64,000 nt of DNA from Minisyncoccota bacterium (lineage in GTDB: Bacteria > Patescibacteriota > Minisyncoccia > Phycocordibacterales > PALSA-1337): assembly GCA_041671485.1 (NCBI GenBank), contig JBAZBL010000003.1, positions 25,412 through 89,411 on the forward strand. The letters are read 5' to 3'. The translations under genes were made by a program, and so were the position numbers. Positions 1 through 60,269 of this stretch are shown in pieces. The stretch's first letter is position 1, and each line of letters opens with the position of its first letter. The notes below the pieces were generated by a model. That model was not told where the DNA came from and searched no databases. It saw only the letters and a list, made by a program, of their open reading frames with translations.

Positions 1-1292
1 AGATTGTCGAATACAAATATATTGTGGACCATGTATCCTGCAATAAGTCCTGTAAGTAATGTTTTATTCTTGAATGAAATGTTCGATTTCCAGACTCCTC
101 GAAATGCTAGAAAGTACAGTGACAGATATGCGAGAATGCCGACCAGACCAGCATTGATGAGCCAGTCAAGATAAATATTGTGTGCTCGATCGAACCATTG
201 TTCATGAGCCCACATCTTTGGATTGTAATTTGCATTGAATACATAATTGAAATTCTCTTGTCCCCAGCCGAGAATAGGCCTCTCCGACCATCCCTTCAAG
301 GCCATTGGCCAAACATAGCCACGCGCTTGAGTTTGTGTTTCTTTGAGAGAAATAGATGCTAGACGATTCAAGACTTCATTGTCTCTCACAAAAGTCGAAT
401 CACGATTCATCCAGAATATTACACCGATAAAAATGATTGCTCCCATAATTCCTGCCGATATCCAACGACTCTTCTTTGTCTCACTTTTGCCAAATACAGA
501 GTACAAGAATAGGGCGAGCATCACACCACCTATGAGACCCAGTATTGTACCCCTAGTCCCTGTTTCAAAGAGTAAGAATGCTGAAATAAGTGAATATATT
601 CCATACACCAAAAGTTTAAACTTTGATGCAGAATAACCCTTTTGTTTTTCTAGGAAGAAGAAATAACCAGCCAAGAATGAATGGAAAAGCATATAGACTG
701 CCATATAGATAGCATTGCCAAGTGATGCATCTATACGAGTCGAACCTTGGTGAATATCTGCCCAGCCAAATAGTTGCGCAAAACCATATATAGCAACAAT
801 TGCTGATATAGCAAGAGAAGTATTGAGCCAACGATGCCAATATTTTATAGAATCACTATTCCCTGTTGATGAAATCTTTCGAACATTACTTTGCTCACCA
901 GAATTTTTTATGACTATATCATTTACACCAAATACAGAAGTGGTCACAATAAAGAATGCCCATAGATGCACAATCGTCATCCAACCCTCCATACGCTCAA
1001 AGTTGGACCAGATACTGCGGAGTGGATTGACACCTAGAAGATCTGCTACAAGAGCGACCAATGCAAATACAGTAACTGCTACTGTAAGCTTATTTAACTT
1101 CGGACGATATCTAGCATCCAAGAAAGCTAGGATAGCCCAAGAAGCAAAAGCAATCTCTACTAGAAGTCGGAAATAGAAAGCTTTGCCTGTGATAAATGGG
1201 AAAAAGAATGGATTGGCGACGATAAGAGGGAAAAGAGGTATCAAAAATATCACAGTCAGCACGATGGAACGGTTTATTTTCTTCAATATCAT
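1..1292 (-). CDS. O-antigen ligase/polymerase family (Wzy_C-like) polytopic membrane protein, partial; C-terminus lies beyond the window start
   Basis: Continuous - strand frame from the ATG (revcomp of cat at 1290-1292) to the window edge. It is missing from the ORF track because it has no in-window stop. Hand translation gives many hydrophobic segments plus ETGTRG and RAHNIYLDWLINAGLVG motifs typical of the O-antigen ligase family. Confidence 0.5.
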   Translation of the reverse strand, partial: MILKKINRSIVLTVIFLIPLFPLIVANPFFFPFITGKAFYFRLLVEIAFASWAILAFLDARYRPKLNKLTVAVTVFALVALVADLLGVNPLRSIWSNFERMEGWMTIVHLWAFFIVTTSVFGVNDIVIKNSGEQSNVRKISSTGNSDSIKYWHRWLNTSLAISAIVAIYGFAQLFGWADIHQGSTRIDASLGNAIYMAVYMLFHSFLAGYFFFLEKQKGYSASKFKLLVYGIYSLISAFLLFETGTRGTILGLIGGVMLALFLYSVFGKSETKKSRWISAGIMGAIIFIGVIFWMNRDSTFVRDNEVLNRLASISLKETQTQARGYVWPMALKGWSERPILGWGQENFNYVFNANYNPKMWAHEQWFDRAHNIYLDWLINAGLVGILAYLSLYFLAFRGVWKSNISFKNKTLLTGLIAGYMVHNIFVFDN

Positions 1293-1363
1293 ATATCCGA
1301 TAATACTAGCTTAAACAAATAAAAAACTCAACAATTTCCTTTAAATATGATAGTATATTCCTC

Positions 1364-2191
1364 ATGTCAAACACGACATTAACGGTCATAAAGCCAAAGC
1401 GCCTCTTTCATCTTTCGGATCTGAAGGAGCTTTGGAATTATCGTGAACTATTGTATTTCTTTAGCTGGCGTGATCTCAAGGTACGATACAAACAAACTGC
1501 AATTGGTGTTGTTTGGTCAATATTACAACCATTCATAACAATGGTCATATTTTCTATATTCTTTGGCAAATTGGCAGGAATTCCCTCTGATGGCGTACCC
1601 TATCCTATATTCGTTTATACTGGTTTACTCTTCTGGCAATTTTTCGCTGATGCTTTGGGAGAAACAAGCAATTCACTCATAGCCAATAAAGCAATTATTA
1701 CCAAGGTTTACTTCCCTCGCCTCATATTGCCTGTTTCTTCTGTTGTAACCAAATTTGTTGATTTTGCAATTGCTGCAATTATTCTTATTGGTCTTATGTT
1801 CTATTATGGTTATACACCAAATTTGGTTGGATTACTTATATTACCACTTCTACTACTACTAACTTTTATGATAGCTATAGGTCTTGGACTTTTCCTGTCT
1901 GCGGTGAATGTGAAATATAGAGATGTCCGCTATGCTCTACCTTTCTTCATACAACTTCTTCTATTTGTCACACCAGTCATATATCCCGCTTCTATTGCTG
2001 GTAAATATTCATATCTCTTAGCATTCAATCCAATGATGGGTGTTATACAAGGTGCTCGTGCAGCTCTTCTTGGAACAACACCCATCAACTGGTTACTTAT
2101 TTTGGCTTCAGCAGTTGGTTGTGTGATAGTGCTAACAATTGGAATCATATATTTCAAGAAAACAGAACGATATTTCGCAGATATTATTTAG
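1364..2191 (+). CDS. wzm: ABC-2 type polysaccharide/O-antigen export permease (Wzm/TagG-like)
   Basis: 275 aa with six predicted TM segments and the ABC-2 permease pattern (WRDLKVRYKQTAIGVVWSILQP). It sits immediately upstream of the ATPase. Confidence 0.8.
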   Translation: MSNTTLTVIKPKRLFHLSDLKELWNYRELLYFFSWRDLKVRYKQTAIGVVWSILQPFITMVIFSIFFGKLAGIPSDGVPYPIFVYTGLLFWQFFADALGETSNSLIANKAIITKVYFPRLILPVSSVVTKFVDFAIAAIILIGLMFYYGYTPNLVGLLILPLLLLLTFMIAIGLGLFLSAVNVKYRDVRYALPFFIQLLLFVTPVIYPASIAGKYSYLLAFNPMMGVIQGARAALLGTTPINWLLILASAVGCVIVLTIGIIYFKKTERYFADII

Positions 2192-2201
2192 AATAAAGAA
2201 A

Positions 2202-3449
2202 ATGGATAAACCAATTATAGAAGTAAAAAATATAGGCAAGAAATATAATATCACTCATATGAAGGGTGGATATATTGCATTGCGTGATGTAATAGCAAGT
2301 GCACTCAGAAATCCTTTTTCATTTATCAAGAACAAAGCCAAACAAGCTGTTGGCTTGACGAAGAAAGAAGAATTCTGGGCTCTAAAAGATGTTTCCTTCA
2401 CTGTGAAGAGAGGAGAGATCGTTGGTGTGATTGGCGCAAATGGAGCTGGAAAATCGACTCTCCTAAAAGTATTATCACAAATAACTCCACCAACAGAGGG
2501 TGAAGTTATGTTACATGGTCGTGTCGGTTCCCTACTCGAAGTTGGTACTGGTTTTCATCCAGAATTGACTGGCCGAGAGAATATATTCCTGAATGGAGCA
2601 ATTCTTGGCATGAAGAAAGGTGAGATTGCCTCCAAGTTTGATCAAATCGTAGAATTCGCAGGAATTGAGAAATTCCTCGACACACCGGTCAAATATTATT
2701 CGAGTGGTATGTATGTTCGTCTAGCTTTCTCCGTAGCAGCACATATGGAACCAGACATTCTACTCATAGATGAAGTCTTGGCAGTTGGCGATGCAGAATT
2801 CCAGAAGAAGTGTTTGGGTAAGATGAATGAGATCACAAAGAATGAAGGAAGGACGATTTTGTTCGTGAGCCACAATTTAGAAGCTATCCGTAATTTGTGT
2901 CCAACAACTATACTCCTAGAAGGTGGAAAGATTAATTTTAAAGGTTCCACAAATGAAGTTATCAAGAAATATAATAGCGTAACAAAAGATAATTTTGATT
3001 TTTCTAAAAATTTCAACAGACGAGGAAATGGATTGATCAAATTAACAGGATTCGATATCGTCGATGAAAATAATAAATCTGTTGAATTAATAAATACTGG
3101 AATGAAAATCTCATTTAATTTTTTCTATAGATGCGAGAATCCTGATAGCATATCAAATGTAGATGTTGGTTTCTCAATCTGTAAACAAGATGGAATGTTG
3201 CTTGGAACAAGATATAGCTCATATACCGGAGAAAAGTTAAATGTCAAAACAGAAGGTTGTTTCAAATATTCTATAGACAACCTACCTTTGGATCCAGGCA
3301 CATATGGCATTAATGCTAGAATACTTGCTAATGGTTCTGAGTCTGATTGGCCCAAAGAGCCGATTAAGTATTTGACATTGACTAGTAAAGAAAACGAAAG
3401 AACATACCCCGATTCGATCGTTTGTATTAGTGGAAAATGGTCTACATAA
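2202..3449 (+). CDS. wzt: ABC transporter ATP-binding protein Wzt/TagH-like with a C-terminal extension (possible glycan-binding domain)
   Basis: Walker A GANGAGKST, signature YSSGMYVRLAF and Walker B LLIDEVLAVGD are present. About 180 extra C-terminal residues follow the NBD. Start placed at the ATG at 2202 (MDKPIIEVKN), not at the ORF-track extension. Confidence 0.8.
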   Translation: MDKPIIEVKNIGKKYNITHMKGGYIALRDVIASALRNPFSFIKNKAKQAVGLTKKEEFWALKDVSFTVKRGEIVGVIGANGAGKSTLLKVLSQITPPTEGEVMLHGRVGSLLEVGTGFHPELTGRENIFLNGAILGMKKGEIASKFDQIVEFAGIEKFLDTPVKYYSSGMYVRLAFSVAAHMEPDILLIDEVLAVGDAEFQKKCLGKMNEITKNEGRTILFVSHNLEAIRNLCPTTILLEGGKINFKGSTNEVIKKYNSVTKDNFDFSKNFNRRGNGLIKLTGFDIVDENNKSVELINTGMKISFNFFYRCENPDSISNVDVGFSICKQDGMLLGTRYSSYTGEKLNVKTEGCFKYSIDNLPLDPGTYGINARILANGSESDWPKEPIKYLTLTSKENERTYPDSIVCISGKWST

Positions 3450-3470
3450 AAGATTTAAATTATTTACAAG

Positions 3471-4181
3471 ATGATAAAACAAATGATTTCTCACTTGATA
3501 CCATCGCGCTTACTTGAAAGAATAATGTTTTTAAAATTCAAGTATGCCACAGTCTCTTTTTCCCAACATGGCGAAGATACTATTCTACGAGATCTTCTTT
3601 GGAAGACAAAAAAGGGATTCTATGTGGATATTGGAGCGCACCATCCAACAAGATTCTCCAATACATATTGGTTCTATCGCAACGGTTGGAAAGGTATCAA
3701 TATAGATGCTTCACCTGGATCTATGAAGAATTTTAGAACTATTAGACCAAATGATATTAATATAGAGATAGGTATATCTGAAAAGCCAAATGTGATGAAC
3801 TTTTTTCGATTCAATAAGCCGGCTTTCAATACTTTCTCGATACAATTGGCAAATAAATACAAAGAACAAGGATTCAAATTATTAGATACGGTCAAAGTCA
3901 ACACTGATACTTTGGAAAATATATTAGATAAGAATTTTCCTTTGGGACAGACTATTGATTTTATGAGTATTGATGCCGAGGGATATGATCTAGAAGTATT
4001 AAAGTCCAACGACTGGTCTAGATTTATACCCAAAATCATAGTAATAGAGGACAATAATTTTTCAGTCGAGAATCCATATAATTCACCGATAGCCAACTTT
4101 CTAAAAGAAAAGAGTTACAAAATAATTACGTATACGGGACATACTCTTTTTTTATTAAACAATAATAATTATATTTCATGA
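3471..4181 (+). CDS. FkbM-family SAM-dependent methyltransferase
   Basis: FSQHGEDTILRDLL and DIGAHHPT motifs characteristic of the FkbM methyltransferase domain. Confidence 0.7.
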   Translation: MIKQMISHLIPSRLLERIMFLKFKYATVSFSQHGEDTILRDLLWKTKKGFYVDIGAHHPTRFSNTYWFYRNGWKGINIDASPGSMKNFRTIRPNDINIEIGISEKPNVMNFFRFNKPAFNTFSIQLANKYKEQGFKLLDTVKVNTDTLENILDKNFPLGQTIDFMSIDAEGYDLEVLKSNDWSRFIPKIIVIEDNNFSVENPYNSPIANFLKEKSYKIITYTGHTLFLLNNNNYIS

Positions 4182-5878
4182 AAACCCCAATTCTCTTTAT
4201 AACATTCAATAGACCTGAACAAACTGAACGTGTTTTCGCAGAAATCCGTAAAATACAACCCGAAAAACTTTTCATTGCTGCGGATGGACCTAGAGATAAC
4301 AGGCCTGAAGATGTAGAGAAGTGTGCAAAAACAAGAAAGATAATAGAGAAGGTTGATTGGCCTTGTGATCTGAAAACTTTGTTTCAGGATAAAAACCTTG
4401 GCTGTAAGATCGGAGCAACTACTGCTATTGGTTGGTTTTTTGATCATGTTGAAGAAGGGATAATCCTAGAAGATGATTGCATTCCCGATAAGTCTTTTTT
4501 CCCTTTTTGTGCAGAAATGCTCAACTATTTTAGAAATAAAGAGAAGATTATAATGATTTGCGGATATAATATCAACGAGAAATCAAATATCCCATATTCA
4601 TATACTTTTTCACGATATGGACATCTTTGGGGTTGGGCATCATGGAGACGAGTATGGAAACAGTATGATGTAACAATGAAGATTTGGGAAAGCAAAGAAA
4701 ATCAGAGAAAGATAAAGAAGGCCATGGGTGATCGCCAGCATTGGAATTATCGGCAATGGCTTTACAACGAAACGTATCATGGAAGAAAAGATACTTGGGA
4801 TTATCAATGGGAATCATACCGATTACTTCACAATCAATTATCAATCATTCCTGCAACCAATATGATAGAAAATATTGGTTTTGGAGCTGATGCAACACAT
4901 ACAAAACAAACAAATTCCCATTTGCTAATAAAAAGAAGGGCGATCACTTTTCCGATTGTTCACAATTCAAATATTATTGCTGATGACAATTATGACAAAT
5001 TATTGAGACCACCAAATAAAGCACCTAGCATGTGGATACGAAACATTAAAGAAATGATCAAGACAAATGCCAAAGACATTGTTCCACCACTTCTATACAG
5101 GACAATAAGACAGATACTTTTACGTCAAATAAAATTTAGACCTAGATGGAATACACTACAATACAAATCGATGGAAGGAGTACAAATGTATTTTGACCCA
5201 TCTGGATCGTGGCAAAAAAAGATGCTCGATGGTTCATATGACAAATTCCTCTTCGATAGACTTCGTGATATTGGTGCAAGTAACAAAGTTATCTATGATA
5301 TTGGTGCTCATGTCGGATATCACTCACTGTATTTTGCTCGAATGGTCGGTGAAGGTGGAAAAATCTTTGCCTTCGAACCAAATAATAATAATCTTGATCG
5401 AATAAAATTAAATCTTGACCATAATAAAGATCTGGAAAAAAGAATTAAGATTTTTAACATTGCTATTTCAGATGAGTATGGAAATGCAGAGTTTAATATC
5501 AACAATGATATTGAAAGTGGTAGAAGTTCTGGAAACTTTATTGGTGGGGCTCATCCTTTCTGGAGCCGAGATGTTTACAAGATAAAGGGGTTTATCAAAA
5601 CACGAGTGAAGACAATTCCGATTGACATGTTTAGAGAACATCTCGATATAAATAGTTCTCCAGATATTATCAAACTCGATGTTGAGGGAGCAGAATATCT
5701 AGCACTCAAAGGTGCGAAGAATACCTTGCTATCGAAGAGACCAATAATATTTATAGAAATTCATTCAATGCAGAGTATGTTCGAAGTTATTACATTTCTT
5801 ACATCATTATCATATAGCTCAAGAATTATTCATGTTGAAGATAATGGTGTTTGCTACATAGAAGCACAAAAATTATGA
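4178..5878 (+). CDS. Two-domain protein: N-terminal GT-A-like glycosyltransferase region fused to a C-terminal FkbM-family methyltransferase
   Basis: N-terminus ILFITFNRPEQTERV, typical of a nucleotide-sugar transferase. The C-terminal 230 aa has the FkbM pattern (YDIGAHVGYHSLYFA ... KLDVEGAEYLAL). It overlaps the upstream gene by 4 nt (ATGA). Confidence 0.6.
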   Translation: MKTPILFITFNRPEQTERVFAEIRKIQPEKLFIAADGPRDNRPEDVEKCAKTRKIIEKVDWPCDLKTLFQDKNLGCKIGATTAIGWFFDHVEEGIILEDDCIPDKSFFPFCAEMLNYFRNKEKIIMICGYNINEKSNIPYSYTFSRYGHLWGWASWRRVWKQYDVTMKIWESKENQRKIKKAMGDRQHWNYRQWLYNETYHGRKDTWDYQWESYRLLHNQLSIIPATNMIENIGFGADATHTKQTNSHLLIKRRAITFPIVHNSNIIADDNYDKLLRPPNKAPSMWIRNIKEMIKTNAKDIVPPLLYRTIRQILLRQIKFRPRWNTLQYKSMEGVQMYFDPSGSWQKKMLDGSYDKFLFDRLRDIGASNKVIYDIGAHVGYHSLYFARMVGEGGKIFAFEPNNNNLDRIKLNLDHNKDLEKRIKIFNIAISDEYGNAEFNINNDIESGRSSGNFIGGAHPFWSRDVYKIKGFIKTRVKTIPIDMFREHLDINSSPDIIKLDVEGAEYLALKGAKNTLLSKRPIIFIEIHSMQSMFEVITFLTSLSYSSRIIHVEDNGVCYIEAQKL

Positions 5879-6819
5879 GAACCCATATTGTTACAATATC
5901 TGACAAAAACCACCTAGGTAGGATGATAGCACTACGTCAATCGTTAACAGTTCATGCACCAGATTCACATATTTATTATTTATGTCTTGATGATTTGGGA
6001 TATCAAACTGCAAAGAAATTGAACATACCAGAAACAACTATTCTGAGACCAGAGGATCTAAACGATAAAGAGCTCCTAGCCTCACGTTCAACACGAACAA
6101 ATCCGGAATTTGCGTCAACATGTAAACCTGCTTTCTTATTGTTCACAATGAAGAGTGGCATTGTTAGATCAGATGATTTATTGGTATTTGTTGATCCAGA
6201 TTTTTATTTTTATAAATCAGCACAACCTTTATTCGAGAAAGTCTATAGTTTGGGTTCAATAACTATTACTCCGCATCGCTTTCCGCCCAATCGCGAGAAT
6301 GAACAATGCAAGAAAGGTATATATAATGCTGGAATAATGTTTTTTAAAAATGATGATTCTGCCCTCCAATGTTTGGAAGAATGGAGAAAACAATGTATTG
6401 ATTGGTGTTATCTACGTTACGAAAATGGGAAGATTGGCGACCAAGGATATCTGAGTGATTGGCCACGAAAATACAAAGGCGTTTATGAGCTTAGAGATAA
6501 GGGAGTTAACCTTAGTACTTGGAATATTAATAATTACAAAATAACAAAAAATAAAGATGGAGGGTTCTTTGTTGATAATGAACCTCTTATTTGTTTCCAC
6601 TTTCATGGACTAAAATTGTATTTCGACAGAAAAGGTTGTTTACGAGCATACCCTATCACAATATTTCACAAAGAAATATATCGATTGTGCCTTGAAGAAT
6701 TAGAGAGAGCATACGATAAAATACAAACTATAGATTCTTCATGGCGATTTGGTACATTATCACAACTAAACTTATTCAGAATAATAAAACAGACAGTATC
6801 AAGCTATTTTCCACGCTAG
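5875..6819 (+). CDS. GT-A-fold glycosyltransferase-like protein (DXD motif VDPD)
   Basis: 315 aa; Rossmann-like N-terminus (HIVTISDKNHL), a DXD-like VFVDPDFYFY and a conserved HFHG. 4-nt overlap with the upstream gene. Confidence 0.4.
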   Translation: MRTHIVTISDKNHLGRMIALRQSLTVHAPDSHIYYLCLDDLGYQTAKKLNIPETTILRPEDLNDKELLASRSTRTNPEFASTCKPAFLLFTMKSGIVRSDDLLVFVDPDFYFYKSAQPLFEKVYSLGSITITPHRFPPNRENEQCKKGIYNAGIMFFKNDDSALQCLEEWRKQCIDWCYLRYENGKIGDQGYLSDWPRKYKGVYELRDKGVNLSTWNINNYKITKNKDGGFFVDNEPLICFHFHGLKLYFDRKGCLRAYPITIFHKEIYRLCLEELERAYDKIQTIDSSWRFGTLSQLNLFRIIKQTVSSYFPR

Positions 6820-6916
6820 TTTGACTCTCGAAGGTTTGTAGACAGATGGATGTCTAACAGGTATATTGATCTTGGAAAGATAATTTGTTGTTTTACAACC
6901 AACTTTAGAAAGATGT

Positions 6917-8455
6917 ATGAAAACACTCTTAAACACGCAAACTTCGGTTCTTCTAGATAACACCTCAGGAAAAGTCTGTCTCATCATACCACCCTCTCCA
7001 TTTCTATTGGATGAGCGTGTATTCATGTCACTTGGAATTCTCAAGGTCGCAGCCACTCTGGAACAAGCAGGAGTTGATGTTGATGTACTTGATCTCTCTG
7101 GTATCAAGAATTTTCCAGATGTAATCTCTGATTATGTGAGAACTCGAACAGATACTATCTTGTTCGGAATAACATCTACAACACCTCAATTGCCTGCAAC
7201 AACAATAATTGCTCGCACAATACGTTGTTTACGTCCTTGTGCAAGAATTATAATCGGTGGTCCACATGTAACCCTTGTTAATGCTGCATTCAAAAAGGAA
7301 AGACTCCTCGGGCGAAATGGAAGAGCCACTAGAGCGATGGAACAATTAGAGACTTGTTTCGATGTTCTTGTCGCTGGGGATGGAGAGGAAGCTGTTTTTG
7401 GTGCATTGGATGAAAATCCACCCAAATTGATTGATGCTGATATAGTGGACTCACCTCTATTCCTAGACAATGAGCGTCTGACCGCACTTCCTTTCCCTGC
7501 ACGACATCTCATCGACGAAAAAAGCTATCACTATTCTATAGATAGTGTTCCCGCTTTATCACTTATCGCACAGCTCGGATGTCCATTCGCTTGTGGATTC
7601 TGTGGTGGACGAGAGTCTCCATCCCTTCGGAAAATACGCATGCGAACTTCCGAAAACATTGTTGCGGAAATGATCCACATCTACCAAACAACTGGAAAGA
7701 GAGGATTCATGTTGTATGATGATGAGCTCAATGTTAACAGAAACATGGTTCCTCTCATGAATCTTATTGCAAAGACACAGAGAGATCTAGGAGTTACGTG
7801 GCGATTACGTGGTTTCATAAAATCACAGCTTCTTACAGACGAACAAGCCCAAGCCATGTATGAAGCTGGATTCAGATGGATTCTGGTTGGCTTTGAATCA
7901 GGTTCGTCTGACATTTTAGAGGCTATTAACAAAAGAGCAACACGTGATGAGAATACTCGGTGTATGGAAATCGCGAGACGTCATGGGCTGAAAATAAAGG
8001 CACTGATGTCTATTGGTCATCCAGGAGAAAATATTGCAACTATTGAACAAACCAGGGACTGGCTCATTGAGACAAAACCTGACGACTTCGATATCTCTCT
8101 TATTACATGTTACCCAGGAACACCTTATTACGATCAGGCTATCCCATCCCATGGTAAAGATATGGTTTGGGTATATACCTATCCAAATACAGGTGCCAAA
8201 CTGTATCAATACGCTGTTGATTTTATGGAAACAGCAAACTATTACAAGGGCGATCCTGATGGTGGTTACAAAGCATATGTCTTCACGGACGAACTCTCAT
8301 CTGATGATTTAGTGTTCCAACGTGACCGCTTGGAGAGAGAAGTGCGTTCTATTCTTGGTATTCCATTCAATCCGAGTACAAAAGCAGTTCTTTACGAACA
8401 TTCAATGGGACAATGGGGAAAACTTCCTCACAATATTCTTCGTACCAAAGACTAA
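6917..8455 (+). CDS. B12-binding radical SAM protein (class B radical SAM; possible methyltransferase)
   Basis: N-terminal cobalamin-binding-like Rossmann segment followed by the CxxxCxxC radical SAM cluster motif (GCPFACGFCGG). Confidence 0.75.
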   Translation: MKTLLNTQTSVLLDNTSGKVCLIIPPSPFLLDERVFMSLGILKVAATLEQAGVDVDVLDLSGIKNFPDVISDYVRTRTDTILFGITSTTPQLPATTIIARTIRCLRPCARIIIGGPHVTLVNAAFKKERLLGRNGRATRAMEQLETCFDVLVAGDGEEAVFGALDENPPKLIDADIVDSPLFLDNERLTALPFPARHLIDEKSYHYSIDSVPALSLIAQLGCPFACGFCGGRESPSLRKIRMRTSENIVAEMIHIYQTTGKRGFMLYDDELNVNRNMVPLMNLIAKTQRDLGVTWRLRGFIKSQLLTDEQAQAMYEAGFRWILVGFESGSSDILEAINKRATRDENTRCMEIARRHGLKIKALMSIGHPGENIATIEQTRDWLIETKPDDFDISLITCYPGTPYYDQAIPSHGKDMVWVYTYPNTGAKLYQYAVDFMETANYYKGDPDGGYKAYVFTDELSSDDLVFQRDRLEREVRSILGIPFNPSTKAVLYEHSMGQWGKLPHNILRTKD

Positions 8456-8458
8456 GCT

Positions 8459-8536
8459 TCAAACGAAGCATAATGTTGTATTACACTTCAACTCCCCTTT
8501 CATTAGTCATCATAGCAATGTTGACTAAAAAAAGGG
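8459..8536. terminator. Nested hairpins in a convergent gene junction; likely bidirectional intrinsic terminator
   Basis: gcttcAAACgaagc directly after the radical SAM stop, then ccccttt...(ttagtca/tgactaa)...aaagggg followed by a T-run (tctatttttt). Confidence 0.4.
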
Positions 8537-53482: not shown

Positions 53483-53818
53483 TTATTCCAATTTGAGGTC
53501 TGCCATTGCTTCATCTACAGACTTTGAAGCTTTTAGAGCAGCCGAAGGCATCTGATCCTTGAGTCCTCCAACAGGCTCATTTATCTTGAGGTTAACGCGA
53601 GAATTATTCTTCATACCCACGACACGGAGTAATGTACGGATTGATTTGGCAGTATTGCCTTGACGACCAATAATCTTGCCCATATCTGCTGCAGAAACTT
53701 CGAGAGTAAGCAGTACTCCCATCTCATCTACTGTGCGAACAATCTTGACCTGATCTGGATAGTCTACCAAAGCTTTGATAACCAATTCGAGAAACTGCTG
53801 ATCTGCGTGCTGATTCAT
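53483..53818 (-). CDS. KH-domain RNA-binding protein (YlqC/UPF0109-like)
   Basis: GKIIGRQGNTAKSIR KH motif; sits in the usual position between rpsP and trmD. Confidence 0.7.
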   Translation of the reverse strand: MNQHADQQFLELVIKALVDYPDQVKIVRTVDEMGVLLTLEVSAADMGKIIGRQGNTAKSIRTLLRVVGMKNNSRVNLKINEPVGGLKDQMPSAALKASKSVDEAMADLKLE

Positions 53819-53960
53819 GATATTTATAAGCTAAATTATAATCGTACAGTTCGCTGTACTACAAATATTCTATCAGAAAAATAATTACCGTCAATCGTTT
53901 TTGTTTCAAGTGATAATGTAATATTTTGAATCCTCTTCGGAGGCACCATAAAGTAAGATT

Positions 53961-54992
53961 TTAAAATGACCGCAGATATTCCTCAAGCAATCGGTCATAT
54001 ATTGGTTGCAATATGCACTGATAATTATAGGCATTACCATGCTTTAACATACCCAAATAAGACGAGACTGTTTCGAACTTTGGCTCGTTATTGCATTTAT
54101 TCATCATTCTTCTTCTGGTAGTTGTCCTTAACACCCGATGATCTGGAAAGTGTATCCAGCCCAAAAAGTCAACGCCCGAAGCAAAAGTCTTGAGAAATGT
54201 TTTGTCGGGATGTAATGACAAATGGAGTTTTTCTTTCAAAAATTGGTCCATATCTGTAAGCATAGATAAAAGTAATTTGTGATCAGTGTTAAGGATTACA
54301 AAATCATCGGCATAACGAATATAGTATTTGACTTTGATTTTATGCTTCATGAATTGATCGAATTTATTCATGTAAATATTCGCGAATAATTGAGAAGTTA
54401 AATTTCCTAGTGGCATACCAACATTTGGGTCACCCGAATGAAAACTGTTTATTATTTGATCTAACAGATGAAGAATGTCCCGGTCGGGAATATAGGAATT
54501 GAGTATGTCAAATAATATTTGATGATCTATTGAAGCAAAGAACTTTCTAATATCACATTTCAAAACCCAAACAGTTTTTGTATGATTGCACGATGCTTGT
54601 CTGGCAAACTCGCTAAATTTTTTGAAGGCTCTATGTGTACCTTTGTCGATCCTACAAGAATATGAATCAGAGATGAAAGTTCGGTCAAAGAATGGGTATA
54701 GTTTCCTGTAAAGTGCTCGATGTAAAATTCGATCTCTTACAGTAGCTTTATGGATATTACGAGGTTTGGGATCATTGATTTTGAAGGGCATATATGGACC
54801 ATGTACAAATGTTCTATTTTTCAAATCTTTGTGGAGTTGTAATAGGTGTCTCATTAACTGTAATCGAAATTCAGCTACATCTTCCCTTCTGTCTTTGTCG
54901 GCTGAAAATTCATTCCACGCCTCTAGTAAATTCTCAATGGATATGATAGCTTCGTAGTTATGGCTGAATTGAATTCGTCCCATATTTCTCAT
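53961..54992 (-). CDS. Diversity-generating retroelement (DGR) reverse transcriptase
   Basis: 343 aa; RT motifs including PLGNLTSQLFANIYM (the DGR-type I/LGxxxSQ motif rather than the group II QGxxxSP) and YIRYADDFVIL (YADD). Lies directly downstream of the TR on the same strand. Confidence 0.85.
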   Translation of the reverse strand: MRNMGRIQFSHNYEAIISIENLLEAWNEFSADKDRREDVAEFRLQLMRHLLQLHKDLKNRTFVHGPYMPFKINDPKPRNIHKATVRDRILHRALYRKLYPFFDRTFISDSYSCRIDKGTHRAFKKFSEFARQASCNHTKTVWVLKCDIRKFFASIDHQILFDILNSYIPDRDILHLLDQIINSFHSGDPNVGMPLGNLTSQLFANIYMNKFDQFMKHKIKVKYYIRYADDFVILNTDHKLLLSMLTDMDQFLKEKLHLSLHPDKTFLKTFASGVDFLGWIHFPDHRVLRTTTRRRMMNKCNNEPKFETVSSYLGMLKHGNAYNYQCILQPIYDRLLEEYLRSF

Positions 54993-55017
54993 AATACCCC
55001 CCCCACGGTTTTTACCA

Positions 55018-55404
55018 GTTGTCGAAAAGCTTAAATCAAGCTACAAACTTTGGCATGAATATCACGGACTCGTACCGAAAACACAAAGATATTCGCTTGG
55101 CAATAGAATAGATAATCTCTTAGTAGAAAGCATCGAAGCGACAGTAACTGCGACATTTTTATCAAAAGAAGAGAAATTACCGTGGATACGACTGGCAATT
55201 CGAAAAACCGATACATTGAAAGTTTTACTCATGATTTTATGGGAAACTAAATCAATAGATGATAAAAAATATATTGCTCTTTCTGTGAAATTAGATGAGG
55301 TCGGCAAGATGCTCGGTGGTTGGAGTGGACAGCTTATAAAATCTACCTCTACTAAAACTATAGTGAATAAACAAAACTCTCCAGCAAAAGCAGGAGAGAA
55401 ATGA
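55018..55404 (+). CDS. Avd-like four-helix-bundle protein (accessory variability determinant family) on the opposite strand to the RT; no canonical start codon as sequenced
   Basis: Frame open from 54973 to the TGA at 55402-55404. Translation ...KLKSSYKLWHEYHGLVPKTQRYSLGNRIDNLLVESIEATVTATFLSKEEKLPWIRLAIRKTDTLKVLLMILWETKSIDDKKYIALSVKLDEVGKMLGGWSGQLIK matches the 23S-rRNA-IVS/Avd four-helix-bundle pattern. An ATG at 54960 is one frame off, across a C8 tract. Confidence 0.45.
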   Translation, partial: VVEKLKSSYKLWHEYHGLVPKTQRYSLGNRIDNLLVESIEATVTATFLSKEEKLPWIRLAIRKTDTLKVLLMILWETKSIDDKKYIALSVKLDEVGKMLGGWSGQLIKSTSTKTIVNKQNSPAKAGEK

Positions 55405-55412
55405 AGAGAGTC

Positions 55413-55534
55413 GCCGACACCGCCGCAGGGTTGTTGTCTTTGAAGTCGTTGTCAAGCCAGTTGTAGTTCCAGTCCCACCTGCCGCCGTTCCAGTTGAGGT
55501 AACGAACATAGAGGTTGTCATCGGCGCTGCGGTA
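55413..55534 (-). repeat. DGR template repeat (TR)
   Basis: 122 nt aligning gap-free with 55861-55982. All 17 differences are at TR adenines (sense = - strand). The TR sense strand is rich in AAC codons. Confidence 0.85.
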
Positions 55535-55778
55535 TCGTATGAAGCACCATCCATACCACCACCCCTCGGATACCCTCAGGGCTGAATCGTATTTGGCATC
55601 GTAATGCCTTAGCACCTCATACCAAGTATTTTCATTTTTTAATGAAGTTCTGCATACACCACTCTACCCAAAATCTTGGTCGTGGATATTCTCGATGTAT
55701 GGATACTGGTTTCGGTAGCAAGCAACATTAGTCGCTCACATATTCACCTACTCCCGCCACATCTTACCATATAAATCA

Positions 55779-55802
55779 GCCCCGCGCGTTGTCGCACGGG
55801 GC
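55779..55802 (-). other. GC-rich stem-loop downstream of the VR (candidate DGR homing-enhancing hairpin/cruciform)
   Basis: gccccgcgcg-ttgt-cgcacggggc: 10-bp stem (one C-A mismatch) with a 4-nt loop, about 58 nt beyond the IMH-like end of the VR. Confidence 0.45.
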
Positions 55803-55853
55803 CAAGGTCAAAGGTCACAGGTTCTGAAGAACAAAGTGACTGATGTTCAAGAG

Positions 55854-56474
55854 CTAACTTGCCGACACCGCCGCAGGGTCGAGGCCCCTGAAGTCGTTGT
55901 CAAGCCAGCGGCAGTTCCAGCCCCACCTGCCGCCGCCCCAGCGGAGGCAACGAACATAGAGGTCGTCATCGGCGCCGCGGTAGATGGTCCCCCAGAAGAA
56001 GATGTAGCGGGTGTTTCCGTTTTCATCCTTTTTCCATGCCTCGGGAATGAGGTGCGGGTTCTTCAGGAGATAATCCAAAACATTGGCGTTGAGGACTCGT
56101 TGCTTGGCGAGTTCCTTGCGCAGGTCATTGCCACGGATGGCATTGCCTTTCTTCTGGAGCTTGGACAACCAAAACTCGATTTTCTTGCCATCGAGATAGA
56201 GGTCGTCTCCACGGCATTCGAGCTTGGCAACCTTGCCACTCTGGTGTTCTTCCACCTTCCAGCCGTCAGGAAGGTAGGGGTCGGCACCGAGGTCAATGGC
56301 GTGTTCGATAGGCTTGATTTCATACAAACCCAGTTGGACACCCCTCACACGACCGAGGAAATCCCCGACAGTGAGCGCTTTGACTTCTTCCAGCGATTGG
56401 AAGCCGTTGCGGTTGAGCGCATGCTCGATTTCTTGAGCCAAACCAACACCGAGCGTTAACTTTATATTATCCAT
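55854..56474 (-). CDS. DGR target (variable) protein, 206 aa, with C-terminal VR
   Basis: Intact ORF whose last 40 codons or so are the VR. GC content is far above the genomic background. No obvious signal peptide. Confidence 0.8.
   Translation of the reverse strand: MDNIKLTLGVGLAQEIEHALNRNGFQSLEEVKALTVGDFLGRVRGVQLGLYEIKPIEHAIDLGADPYLPDGWKVEEHQSGKVAKLECRGDDLYLDGKKIEFWLSKLQKKGNAIRGNDLRKELAKQRVLNANVLDYLLKNPHLIPEAWKKDENGNTRYIFFWGTIYRGADDDLYVRCLRWGGGRWGWNCRWLDNDFRGLDPAAVSAS
55861..55982 (-). repeat. DGR variable repeat (VR) at the 3' end of the target gene
   Basis: Cognate of the TR. Encodes YRGADDDLYVRCLRWGGGRWGWNCRWLDNDFRGLDPAAVSA, against TR-encoded YRSADDNLYVRYLNWNGGRWDWNYNWLDNDFKDNNPAAVSA. 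Confidence 0.85.
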
Positions 56475-56539
56475 AATGTGTTCTTTTTCTGTTTCGTGGA
56501 CATGTCCTTTTCGAGGACTGGTCCAAACTGTTGGGCTCG

Positions 56540-56586
56540 CAATTTAGCTTTGCCACAGCAGAGAATGGCCTAAAAAGCTACTTTCT
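56540..56586. repeat. Perfect 13-bp inverted repeat (ttgccacagcaga / tctgctgtggcaa) upstream of the DGR target gene
   Basis: Seen directly; 21-nt spacer; no T-run on either side, so it looks more like an operator or structural element than a terminator. Confidence 0.35.
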
Positions 56587-56784
56587 GCTGTGGCAAATGC
56601 AAGTTAGCATATCAAAGAACTTTACGCTAAAAGTCTATCACACCAATAACTTAAAGTCAAGGGCTTGAATTCACCGAGGAGGAATAATCCCACCTATTTT
56701 GCACTCTATTGAGTAAAGTAGATTTTAAGTTGTTGGTGCTACAGGTGGGGTTGTTACTGAAGCCTCTTTTGCTGTAATCTCAAC

Positions 56785-57135
56785 TTATTCTGACGGAACA
56801 GGTACAGGTTCAGTCACAACCACTTTCGGAGCTTCTTTCACCTCTTCCTTTTTGATCGGAGTTTTCCTAGGTAATGCATTCATCTTTTTGCCAGCAATTA
56901 CCTTCTGCGAAACAAGATAATTGTGAATTGTTACAGATGTTTGTGCACCTTTTGATATCCAATACTTGATACGTTCAACATTCAATTGTTCCAATTTATT
57001 CTTGAGTCTAGAATCATACCAACCCAAATTTTCTAGATATTTACCACTCTTTGGTCCATTTTTGGAATCAGTCAAAACCAACCGAAAAGTTGGTTCGTGT
57101 TTCCTACCAGTGCGTTGCAGTCTTATCATCAACAT
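56785..57135 (-). CDS. rpsP: 30S ribosomal protein S16 (with short C-terminal extension)
   Basis: MLMIRLQRTGRKHEPTFRLVLTDSKNGPKSGKYLENLGWYD is the canonical S16 N-terminus. Confidence 0.85.
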   Translation of the reverse strand: MLMIRLQRTGRKHEPTFRLVLTDSKNGPKSGKYLENLGWYDSRLKNKLEQLNVERIKYWISKGAQTSVTIHNYLVSQKVIAGKKMNALPRKTPIKKEEVKEAPKVVVTEPVPVPSE

Positions 57136-58381: not shown

Positions 58382-59385
58382 TGTTGGATTATGATTTGCT
58401 TTACTGGTACTTGTCTCAATAGTTCATTCTTCGAATATATTTCTGGATCAATCATTCTATCAAAACAAGTATTTCCAGATCTATGATTCCAAGAATCATT
58501 GTTGTATTTTAGGTCGGGTGCATTGACATATACTGATGTTGGACCACGGTTCTTCATATCTTCCGATGGTAGTGCAAATATTGCACAAAGTTCAAATGTA
58601 GTATCGCCTTTTTTATTATAAACATAATCAGTATCATCCTTGGGATCTTGTGGGATCAACCATCCAGATATAGGATCATTTGTATCATCCAATACGTTTG
58701 GTAATTTACTCTTATTCTGCCAATAATTGATAATTTGCCATTGAATATTCGTCAAATCATTTACCCTCTGATTGTCAAAACGAAGATTTCTTTGTTTGGA
58801 TGGAGAACCAACTGCTACAAAACCTCCGATAATTCCTGCAATAACTATTATGATACCTATACCTGCAAGTATTTTGCGCAGACTTCTTCGTGTCTCAATA
58901 GATCTTTCAAAGAGATAATAAGCAAATATGATTATAGAAACAATGAGTACAGCCAATATTTTGTATACAAACCGACTAGTTATTTCTCCGTTCAAATATG
59001 TATTTATGAGTGCAATGAGATCAACAATGATAGCTACACCTGCCGAGAAAAGTGTGAGATATATTCTCCAACGACGTATCCATATCTCTCTTTTTTCTGG
59101 TGTTATAGATATATCACGATTCGTTAGCCATTCTAGGATATATAGGATTGGTACAAGGACAATAAGCATAGAGACTGGCCATACGATACTATTGCCATAG
59201 AAATATCCTGCAAGTCTATCAGGAAGAAAATAATTTATCACACTGAAAAGCAAGTTGAGTAAAGCAATCGCTGAAGCATATAGGGCTATAGTTGCACCCA
59301 AATGCAAGAAGAAGTCCTTTGGTGTCATCTTAGGAGATACTGTATCCATAGAAGTAGTGTTTGTCGGTAAATTATTTGGTGGCAT
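58378..59385 (-). CDS. Polytopic membrane protein of unknown function
   Basis: Six or seven TM helices in the N-terminal two-thirds and a hydrophilic C-terminal domain. Confidence 0.45.
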
Positions 59386-59456
59386 AAATATAATGATTAA
59401 TTACTAAAAACTTATGTTGATTATAACATATTGGTGTATTTAGAATTTTTGAAAGA

Positions 59457-60269
59457 TTAACTATCAGAATAAGAAGTTAAATATAAATGAACTATTTTTG
59501 ATAAATATCTTTGATCAATTTTAAAGAATTTCGTAATTCTTCTAACATTATCTAAAGCAAACTTTGATGCCATTCTTTCTTCTTCTAATATATTTGCAGT
59601 ATCACTAACTTTTCTAGTTTTTTGTTCTTTCTTACGACTTTCTTTTAATTCTTCTTTTCTTTCTATATCTAATTTAGCCATATATTTTAAATGTCCAATT
59701 TCATGAAATAAATTAAATATTGCTAGGATATTATCTATTGGTAATCCTGAATATATAATACCAGAATCTGGATTAGTTCTAGATAATAACATTCTTTTGA
59801 ACCTATCTTTTGATGAAATGCCACTATTAATCAATGGAGAAATTATAAAATATTCTTGATCTTCGCTTGGTTTTAAATCTAATTCTTCATTACCTATCTT
59901 GATTTTTAAATTAGAAATATGAAATGTTCGTTCTTTTATACCATCTTGTTTAAAACTTTGTTCTAGATTAAAAAATGCTAAAGTTTGATTTGTCGATAAA
60001 GAATATATATCTAGTTTTTCACAGAAAAAAGAAATTTGTAAAGTATCTTTTTCATTACCAAAACTAAATTGATTAAAACCTTCCTTTATTCCGTAAATTG
60101 GAGTAGAAAGGTCCTCTATGGCAACTAAAATTGTTTTATCTTCAAAAGATTGTTCTATAATATTTCTTGATTGTCTAGTTTTTCTATCTATATAATCAGA
60201 ATCAATTTCTTCCTGTGTTTCTGGTTTGACAAGATCATCTGGTACTTTAAATAGTTTAAAAAATTCCAT
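59457..60269 (-). CDS. Hypothetical protein with an HExxH motif (possible zinc metallopeptidase)
   Basis: FHEIGHLKYM. The gene is distinctly more AT-rich than its neighbours. Confidence 0.4.
   Translation of the reverse strand: MEFFKLFKVPDDLVKPETQEEIDSDYIDRKTRQSRNIIEQSFEDKTILVAIEDLSTPIYGIKEGFNQFSFGNEKDTLQISFFCEKLDIYSLSTNQTLAFFNLEQSFKQDGIKERTFHISNLKIKIGNEELDLKPSEDQEYFIISPLINSGISSKDRFKRMLLSRTNPDSGIIYSGLPIDNILAIFNLFHEIGHLKYMAKLDIERKEELKESRKKEQKTRKVSDTANILEEERMASKFALDNVRRITKFFKIDQRYLSKIVHLYLTSYSDS

Follow-up and report, generated by a model that had tools for sequence, protein, structure and literature searches.

Two similar repeats lie on the minus strand of a 64,000-nt stretch of DNA from a Minisyncoccota bacterium (assembly GCA_041671485.1, contig JBAZBL010000003.1, positions 25,412 to 89,411 of the forward strand; the whole stretch is referred to as the window). 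The question raised by this locus is whether they are the template repeat (TR) and the variable region (VR) of a diversity-generating retroelement (DGR), and how the RNA of such an element would be organized. In the established biology of DGRs, that of the Bordetella phage BPP-1, the TR is transcribed, and a reverse transcriptase (RT) together with the accessory protein Avd copies it into complementary DNA (cDNA), misincorporating opposite adenines; the cDNA then replaces the VR, and the TR stays intact. The results presented here indicate that the locus is very probably a chromosomal DGR of the type found in Patescibacteria (candidate phyla radiation, CPR), and a model of its template RNA is proposed below.

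A previous description of the window, made from the letters alone (the sequence-only reading), had proposed a repeat pair in which every one of 17 mismatches falls at one of about 31 TR adenines, these being changed to G, C, or T. We realigned the two repeats (55413-55534 against 55861-55982, minus strand, ungapped) and evaluated the mismatches by a hypergeometric test. The alignment contained 17 mismatches over 122 nt and required no gap. All 17 were located at TR adenines, of which there are exactly 31, so that 17/31 A were changed as against 0/91 non-A positions (TR base content: 31 A, 36 C, 33 G, and 22 T). Neither a mismatch at a non-A position nor an indel occurred. The chance of all 17 changes falling on A is 1.0e-12. 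The changes were A>G in 13 cases, A>C in three, and A>T in one, in agreement with the proposal. The sharp 5' boundary described at TR 55534 and VR 55982 was likewise recovered, since only 4/16 bases agree upstream of it, and the downstream flanks differ at once. A search of the whole window on both strands, in which any change at A was tolerated, found no third repeat copy or further VR.

The VR is in frame with the open reading frame (ORF) 55854-56474 on the minus strand and is located at its 3' end. The 17 changes alter 12 codons, all nonsynonymously, and 16 of them are at codon positions 1 or 2. It had been claimed that eight AAC (Asn) codons of the TR become Gly, Cys, Arg, Leu, or Asp codons in the VR. 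Eight in-frame AAC codons are indeed present in the TR; only six of them are altered, to D, R, G, R, L, and D, and two are unaltered. The two Cys codons of the VR derive from TAC (Tyr), and the other altered TR codons are AGC, GAC (twice), and AAA. Similarly, the claim of an end resembling an initiation-of-mutagenic-homing (IMH) element stood only in its descriptive part. The 18-nt end CCCTGCGGCGGTGTCGGC is GC-rich (83% G+C) and identical in TR and VR. It contains zero adenines, so that adenine-only mutagenesis predicts its identity anyway, and the identity is uninformative about IMH. As a candidate IMH, CCCTGCGGCGGTGTCGGC is compatible with the data. Unlike in BPP-1, no IMH/IMH* pair with few discriminating mismatches is visible at the TR/VR ends, where the flanks diverge immediately.

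The genes expected of a DGR adjoin the repeats. RTs of the DGR clade are marked by [LIV]GxxxSQ in motif 4 plus the YxDD catalytic box, and the RT gene of the cassette carries corresponding motifs (Table 1). Its product matched RVT_1 (1e-23) and PHROG 1423 (2.7e-104) and was 33-38% identical by tblastn to the RTs of 172 phage records, which include Bordetella and Bacteroides DGR phages; an exact look-up of the RT protein returned no identical record. The Avd frame matched Pfam bAvd with 44.7 bits (cut-off 40), PHROG 3206 'Avd protein of DGR' at 2e-14, and NCBIfam DivGenRetAVD at 1.7e-15, the last falling short of its cut-off. In minus-strand order, the cassette consists of the target gene with the VR, a terminator, a candidate promoter, the structured RNA, the TR, a hairpin, Avd on the opposite strand, and the RT. 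Its neighbours are rpsP on one side and khpA-trmD on the other, and the G+C content of the genome is ~36%. The reading of the repeats as a DGR template/variable pair is therefore backed by the RT, by Avd, and by the position of the VR, as well as by the recurrence of the pattern in related cassettes.

This recurrence was assessed by scanning species-representative genomes for target homologues, which yielded 245 loci, of which 80 were fetched for comparison of the cassettes. Avd and RT were present together in roughly 30/80 loci in the same order, and the gene order of the window was found in two loci with precomputed bAvd and RVT_1 matches (L001 and L003). At ~36 non-redundant loci the VR is followed, 320-470 nt further on, by a TR that differs from it essentially at A only; when non-A mismatches were counted with a fixed 105-nt probe, most cassettes showed 0-2. 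The 36 cassettes together contained 520 A-site mismatches among 994 TR adenines, distributed as A>G 62%, A>T 21%, and A>C 16%. Either a misincorporation preference of the RT or selection on the VR may account for the A>G skew, which amounts to 62% in the family and 13/17 here. The cassette with A-only mismatches was also found at ~50 metagenomic loci.

Not all target homologues are accompanied by a DGR. At ~45 loci no TR was found within 6 kb of the target homologue, and two of these loci (L046 and L083) still match Avd and RT. One locus (L038, 5249-11581) shares the rpsP-target-khpA-trmD-1107aa synteny of the window and carries no TR, Avd, or RT. In three others (L013, L027, and L067), shortened 5' RNA domains remain by the target gene; Avd and RT are missing, and no more than part of a TR is present (L067). 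These remnants point to DGR loss. Of the target homologues in species-representative genomes, about half lack a neighbouring DGR, suggesting either repeated DGR loss or targeting in trans. Separately, in a related genome (L003, L004, and L005; about 1290-8488), the same type of DGR stands right after tuf-rpsJ-rplC-rplD-rplW-rplB, where rpsS would normally be expected. This is a second instance of the cassette beside a ribosomal-protein operon.

The properties of the cassette agree with a known class. Architecture B3, TR-(avd)-RT with avd reversed, accounts for 90% of CPR DGRs, and ribosomal-protein genes flank several of them (Wu et al. 2018, PMC5758913). DGR clade 2 is restricted to Patescibacteria and has targets without recognisable domains, for which novel C-type-lectin variants were predicted (Roux et al. 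2021, PMC8144416). As far as the available text of these two reports extends, the class and the cassette share gene order and strands, host phylum, ribosomal-protein neighbours, and a small target without a recognisable domain or transmembrane segment. The element is a member of the CPR B3/clade 2 DGRs, and nothing essential differs within that compass. It represents a clean, fully dissected case of the commonest type of DGR in Patescibacteria, and four features of a public metagenome-assembled genome (MAG) that were hypothetical or unannotated gain an annotation.

The 320-nt spacer between VR and TR is more conserved in nucleotide sequence than the neighbouring coding genes. We compared it in two alignments, one of 36 DGR cassettes from the related genomic loci (A3) and one of 52 independent metagenome loci (A4), which was aligned de novo and replicates A3. 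For the metagenome set, a 17-base pattern taken from the region of P1 served as the query; at least 120 contigs matched, and 80 were fetched. In A3, the conserved elements follow one another as the -10 consensus, a block of ~215 nt, the TR, the sequence GCAACUC-UCUUCAUUU, a hairpin CUCUCC...GGAGAG, and a U tract. RNAalifold predicted 71 pairs, and compensatory changes were present in 44. Its long-range pairing CCAG:CUGG into the TR and several TR-internal pairs showed no compensatory change and were dropped. As a control for the curated structure of 64 pairs in 10 helices, the partner strands were slid and the paired cells counted. In A3, 95.8% of the cells were paired, compared with 41-51% in the slid controls, and double changes were observed in 47 pairs and 328 cells, compared with 36-82 cells. 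The same 64 pairs were paired in 96.7% of the cells in A4, compared with 40-54%, with double changes in 48 pairs and 489 cells. Conserved G-U pairs are frequent and fix the RNA strand as the TR strand. These data strongly support the 5' RNA domain as a structure predicted from covariation.

Table 1. Positions of the cassette elements in the window, in minus-strand order; RNA elements are as predicted from the alignments A3 and A4
Feature	Position	Strand	Remarks
Target (variable-protein) gene	55854..56474	-	206 aa; VR at 3' end
Variable region (VR)	55861..55982	-	codes for C-terminal residues 165-204 of the 206-aa target
Target intrinsic terminator	55776..55805	-	13-bp stem, ACAA loop, T-rich tail; 56 nt past the VR, ~50 nt past the stop codon
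Extended -10 element TGgTAAGAT (candidate)	55761..55770	-	consensus TGnTAnAAT in A3; right after the target terminator, just before conservation begins
Structured 5' domain of DGR RNA	55537..55752	-	~215 nt; covariation in A3 and A4
P1	55748-55714	-	helix of the 5' domain
P2	55701-55653	-	helix of the 5' domain
A-rich strand AAAUGAAAA	55637-55629	-	5' partner of the long-range helix
P3	55622-55537	-	12-bp stem, 55622-55611 with 55548-55537; ends 2 nt upstream of the TR (55537 vs TR 55534)
Template repeat (TR)	55413..55534	-	122 nt, 31 adenines, 8 in-frame AAC codons; direct alignment
Post-TR strand UCUUCAUUU	55399..55407	-	6 nt after the TR; predicted pairing with 55637-55629
Hairpin CUCUCCUGC-UUUU-GCUGGAGAG and U tract	55369..55398	-	terminator-like; opposite strand is the last Avd codons
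Avd accessory gene	55009..55404	+	131 codons, convergent with the TR; homology in three libraries
G8 run (GGGGGGGG-TATT-ATG on the RT strand)	54997..55004	-	4 nt upstream of the RT ATG; Shine-Dalgarno-like
DGR reverse transcriptase	53961..54992	-	343 aa; PLGNLTSQ and YIRYADD motifs

Two elements of the structure lie 3' of the TR. A strand there completes a 9-bp long-range helix, AAAUGAAGA:UCUUCAUUU, which was paired in 89% of the cells with five covarying pairs in A3 and in 91% in A4, where the terminal pair appears as AU, UA, and CG. The terminal hairpin is conserved with compensatory changes in both alignments. A relaxed form of the RNA motif was present at 36/36 DGR loci and at 3/45 DGR-less loci, those three being shortened remnants. 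Among the 80 metagenome contigs fetched, 53 have a VR upstream whose non-A mismatches number four or fewer in 100 nt, and Avd and RT follow downstream on most of the 80. At least five different VR scaffolds are found on these contigs (L087-L166). The occurrence of the same 5' RNA domain, post-TR element, Avd, and RT with different VR scaffolds indicates that the core machinery is shared and the targets are swapped. At least four of the scaffolds on these contigs differ from that of the window and end in ...RFVFxRRK, ...WWFAGVRK, ...GFAFAVSQV, or ...WFxFRK.

A scan of window positions 53800-56900 at E <=1 gave no Rfam match, and no reference to a structured domain on the 5' side of the TR was found in the text of Wu et al. 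(2018) and Roux et al. (2021) covered here. Judged by Rfam 15 and the literature reached, the domain appears to be undescribed; the literature coverage is partial, and the novelty is correspondingly not certain.

How such an RNA would work is suggested by comparison with BPP-1, whose DGR (mtd-avd-TR-brt) shares with the cassette the A-specific transfer from TR to VR, an RT with xGxxxSQ, and Avd, as well as a VR at the C-terminus of a C-type-lectin-type protein, the fold being weakly assigned here. In BPP-1, a strand of the spacer pairs with the 3' end of the TR to form the template:primer duplex, and priming occurs at the 2'-OH of A56 (Handa et al., bioRxiv 10.1101/2023.10.23.563531). Two nucleotides further along the same continuous strand, a second pairing, with the segment immediately 5' of the TR, forms the "cPRT Stop"; this loops out the TR, and the cDNA ends at the stop duplex (Handa et al.). 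The TR of BPP-1 is in this way flanked by adjacent duplexes, the stop 5' and the primer 3', and the same topology is predicted for the cassette. The parts are arranged differently. The avd gene of BPP-1 precedes the TR on the same strand, whereas Avd is antisense and downstream here. The BPP-1 TR is followed by a structured spacer of 140 nt, which is Weinberg's RT-10 motif (in Rfam), whereas the cassette has a large domain 5' and only a hairpin 3'. Downstream of the TR only ~45 nt (the duplex strand, the hairpin, and the U tract) remain before the antisense avd, and no RNA of the BPP-1 spacer type was found in them. Stem-loops binding Avd have been described close to the 3' side of the TR in 207 DGRs; the TR surroundings covered in that study are the 40 nt upstream and the 100 nt downstream (Handa et al.).

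On this basis we propose the following model. As in BPP-1, RT and Avd would copy the TR RNA into cDNA with errors at adenines, and the cDNA would be exchanged into the VR, recoding at least 12 codons of a putative ligand-binding surface. The template RNA, judging from its conserved ends, would be a discrete minus-strand transcript of ~385 nt, running from about 55756 to about 55370, with a promoter and a terminator of its own. P3, which abuts the 5' end of the TR, may act as the stop for reverse transcription by analogy with BPP-1, and its end 2 nt before the TR is a candidate cause of the sharp 5' boundary of the repeat. The 9-bp long-range duplex, which abuts the 3' end of the TR, may act like the template:primer duplex and close the TR into a loop, the conserved adenosine at ~55629 being the candidate priming nucleotide. 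The 5' strand of this duplex (55637-55629), six conserved nucleotides, and the 5' strand of P3 would form one continuous strand in the order and polarity of BPP-1. Both the primer and the stop strands would be located upstream of the template, an order like that of retrons and permuted relative to the BPP-1 spacer, which is 3' of the TR. The terminal hairpin may serve both as an Avd-binding stem-loop and as a terminator protecting avd against antisense transcription.

Tentatively, and with somewhat less than even confidence, we suggest that the 5' domain is an RNA family common to the DGRs of Patescibacteria and a circularly permuted equivalent of the BPP-1 spacer, in which the adenosine at ~55629 primes and P3 sets the 5' edge of mutagenesis. 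If this is true, the priming and stop machinery of DGRs tolerates circular permutation, and the cassettes would let the cis-priming model be tested independently in a natural system. A permuted RNA would further account for how an architecture with antisense avd can function, and would offer a compact, well-defined template RNA for engineered targeted mutagenesis. The likeness to the msr-msd RNA of retrons is an analogy only: a structured priming RNA comes first and the template second, and the 3' flank of the template pairs with a 5' strand. Unlike in a retron, the RT is of the DGR type, the template is homologous to a coding VR, and Avd is present. No evidence of a branched multicopy single-stranded DNA (msDNA) product emerged from the present sequence analysis.

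Several points weigh against the assignment of the locus as a DGR with this template RNA. The sole other contig with the target protein is identical over 2687 nt and hence provides no population evidence of VR variation. The long-range duplex contains one A-C mismatch in the window (AAAUGAAAA against UCUUCAUUU). The roles given to promoter, terminator, priming site, and stop are drawn from conservation and analogy, and if the TR RNA ends at the hairpin, transcription of the RT needs a separate explanation. Finally, the Avd frame is open from 54973, yet contains no ATG, GTG, or TTG before 55216 (codon 70), which is why Avd was absent from the program-made list of ORFs; a start-less Avd could mean that the element is impaired.

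Most relatives begin Avd with TTG at the leucine of 'LLP', where the window has TTA. It is unlikely that an assembly error is behind the missing start: an independent Logan assembly of the Avd region, derived from the same kind of data, is identical. An ATG at 54960 in another frame reaches the Avd frame only through a frameshift in a C8 run, and such a frameshift is a possible origin of the start. This C8 run is the opposite strand of the G8 run and encodes Pro-Pro-Pro in the Avd frame; 'PPP' precedes Avd in nearly all relatives. Its conservation probably reflects the ribosome-binding site of the RT or an RNA element. We also observed that the open Avd frame overlaps the RT coding sequence (start 54992) head to head.

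The missing start bears most directly on the possibility that the DGR was recently inactivated or is decaying, with homing lost and Avd untranslatable. Decay does occur in the family, as the three loci with shortened RNA domains and the syntenic locus L038 show. On the other hand, 0/91 non-A positions differ between TR and VR, the 131 codons of the Avd frame are intact and 45-73% identical to Avd of related cassettes, the RT is intact and keeps its catalytic motifs, and all RNA helices are intact. Two other cassettes (L045 and L057) likewise have no canonical Avd start, which suggests that a non-canonical start is tolerated. We thus regard decay as unlikely, though not negligible, and retain the interpretation as a DGR of the Patescibacteria type.

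A second alternative concerns the conserved block upstream of the TR, which might be a remnant of a protein-coding gene or a regulatory region acting at the DNA level rather than a domain of the DGR RNA. An ORF of 85 aa (55358-55615, minus strand) that overlaps P3 and the TR would fit a coding remnant. The substitutions in the block, however, are pairwise compensatory and not three-periodic, the structure is strand-specific owing to its many conserved G-U pairs, loop insertions have lengths that are not multiples of three, and the overlapping ORFs have no Pfam match. This alternative is very improbable, and we continue to treat the block as part of the template RNA.

That the repeats arose by segmental duplication of the 3' end of the gene and diverged by point mutation or gene conversion, with an A-bias from chance or drift, has almost no probability left, since a faint in-frame resemblance to the target in the translation upstream of the TR and the 13/17 A>G changes, which could mimic GC-ward drift, are opposed by the p of 1e-12 for all changes on A, the presence of A>C and A>T, the adjoining RT and Avd, and the independent recurrence of the pattern in dozens of cassettes.

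A MAG of Candidatus Paceibacterota encodes a hypothetical protein with 100% identity to the target. Searches of the target against Pfam, NCBIfam, and PHROGs gave no match, and a signal peptide is not obvious in its sequence. The family numbers more than 1078 homologues of ~200 aa, essentially all in Patescibacteria, and none of them contains a Pfam domain. In an alignment of 46 members of the family, the scaffold is conserved and the hypervariable columns are the codons with TR adenines only. The VR motif, YRxSDGxLxVRxLxWxGGxWxWxxxWLDxxWxxxxPAAVSAS, is unlike the usual VR of the FGE type.

Single-sequence and profile searches of the target against PDB sequences gave nothing meaningful. An AlphaFold2 model calculated with the family alignment was confident (predicted local distance difference test, pLDDT, 94.2; predicted template modelling score, pTM, 0.83). 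A Foldseek comparison of this model with the PDB gave nothing significant, the top C-type-lectin match having an E of 0.27, and the fold comparison names intimin, invasin, and many animal C-type-lectin domains, which is a weak assignment. In the model, the order of secondary-structure elements in residues ~97-206 fits a minimal C-type-lectin fold. It is thus likely, without being established, that the C-terminal half of the target is a compact, very divergent C-type-lectin-like domain. The DGR target proteins Mtd (1yu0) and TvpA (2y3c) gave weak scores against the target and share no sequence or Pfam similarity with it, and the modelled domain, at ~110 aa, is much smaller than theirs. With the present data, more than 1000 unannotated proteins of 200 aa can be assigned as DGR targets with a variable domain that is probably minimal and lectin-like.

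The hairpin following the VR was considered as a DGR cruciform, and a DGR-specific role for it was rejected. The hairpin resembles an ordinary terminator, and an equivalent hairpin follows the target gene in 23/36 DGR-linked and 27/44 DGR-less homologues. Because DGR-less homologues carry it equally often, the hairpin at 55805-55776 is assigned as the terminator of the target gene and not as a DGR-specific element. Hairpin or cruciform-type repeats downstream of the VR are present in only 34% of DGRs, according to the portion of Wu et al. (2018, PMC5758913) covered here.

Upstream of the target gene, a 21-nt inverted repeat (56549-56597; 86% complementary, 7-nt loop) is located between rpsP and the target, and a promoter-like TTGACT-17-TAGACT with TG (56632-56660) lies just upstream of it on the minus strand. 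From their sequences, the two may represent a terminator or attenuator of rpsP and the target's own promoter. The target gene outside the VR has 52% G+C, compared with 37% in its flanks and 35% in RT plus Avd. Across the family, the G+C content of the target exceeds that of its flanks by 7 points on average (70/83 loci, with a DGR or not), and the RT is on average 4 points poorer in G+C. Elsewhere in the window, G+C falls to 23-25% at 59300-59900, over an ORF of 270 aa (59457-60269, minus strand), in surroundings of ~36%.

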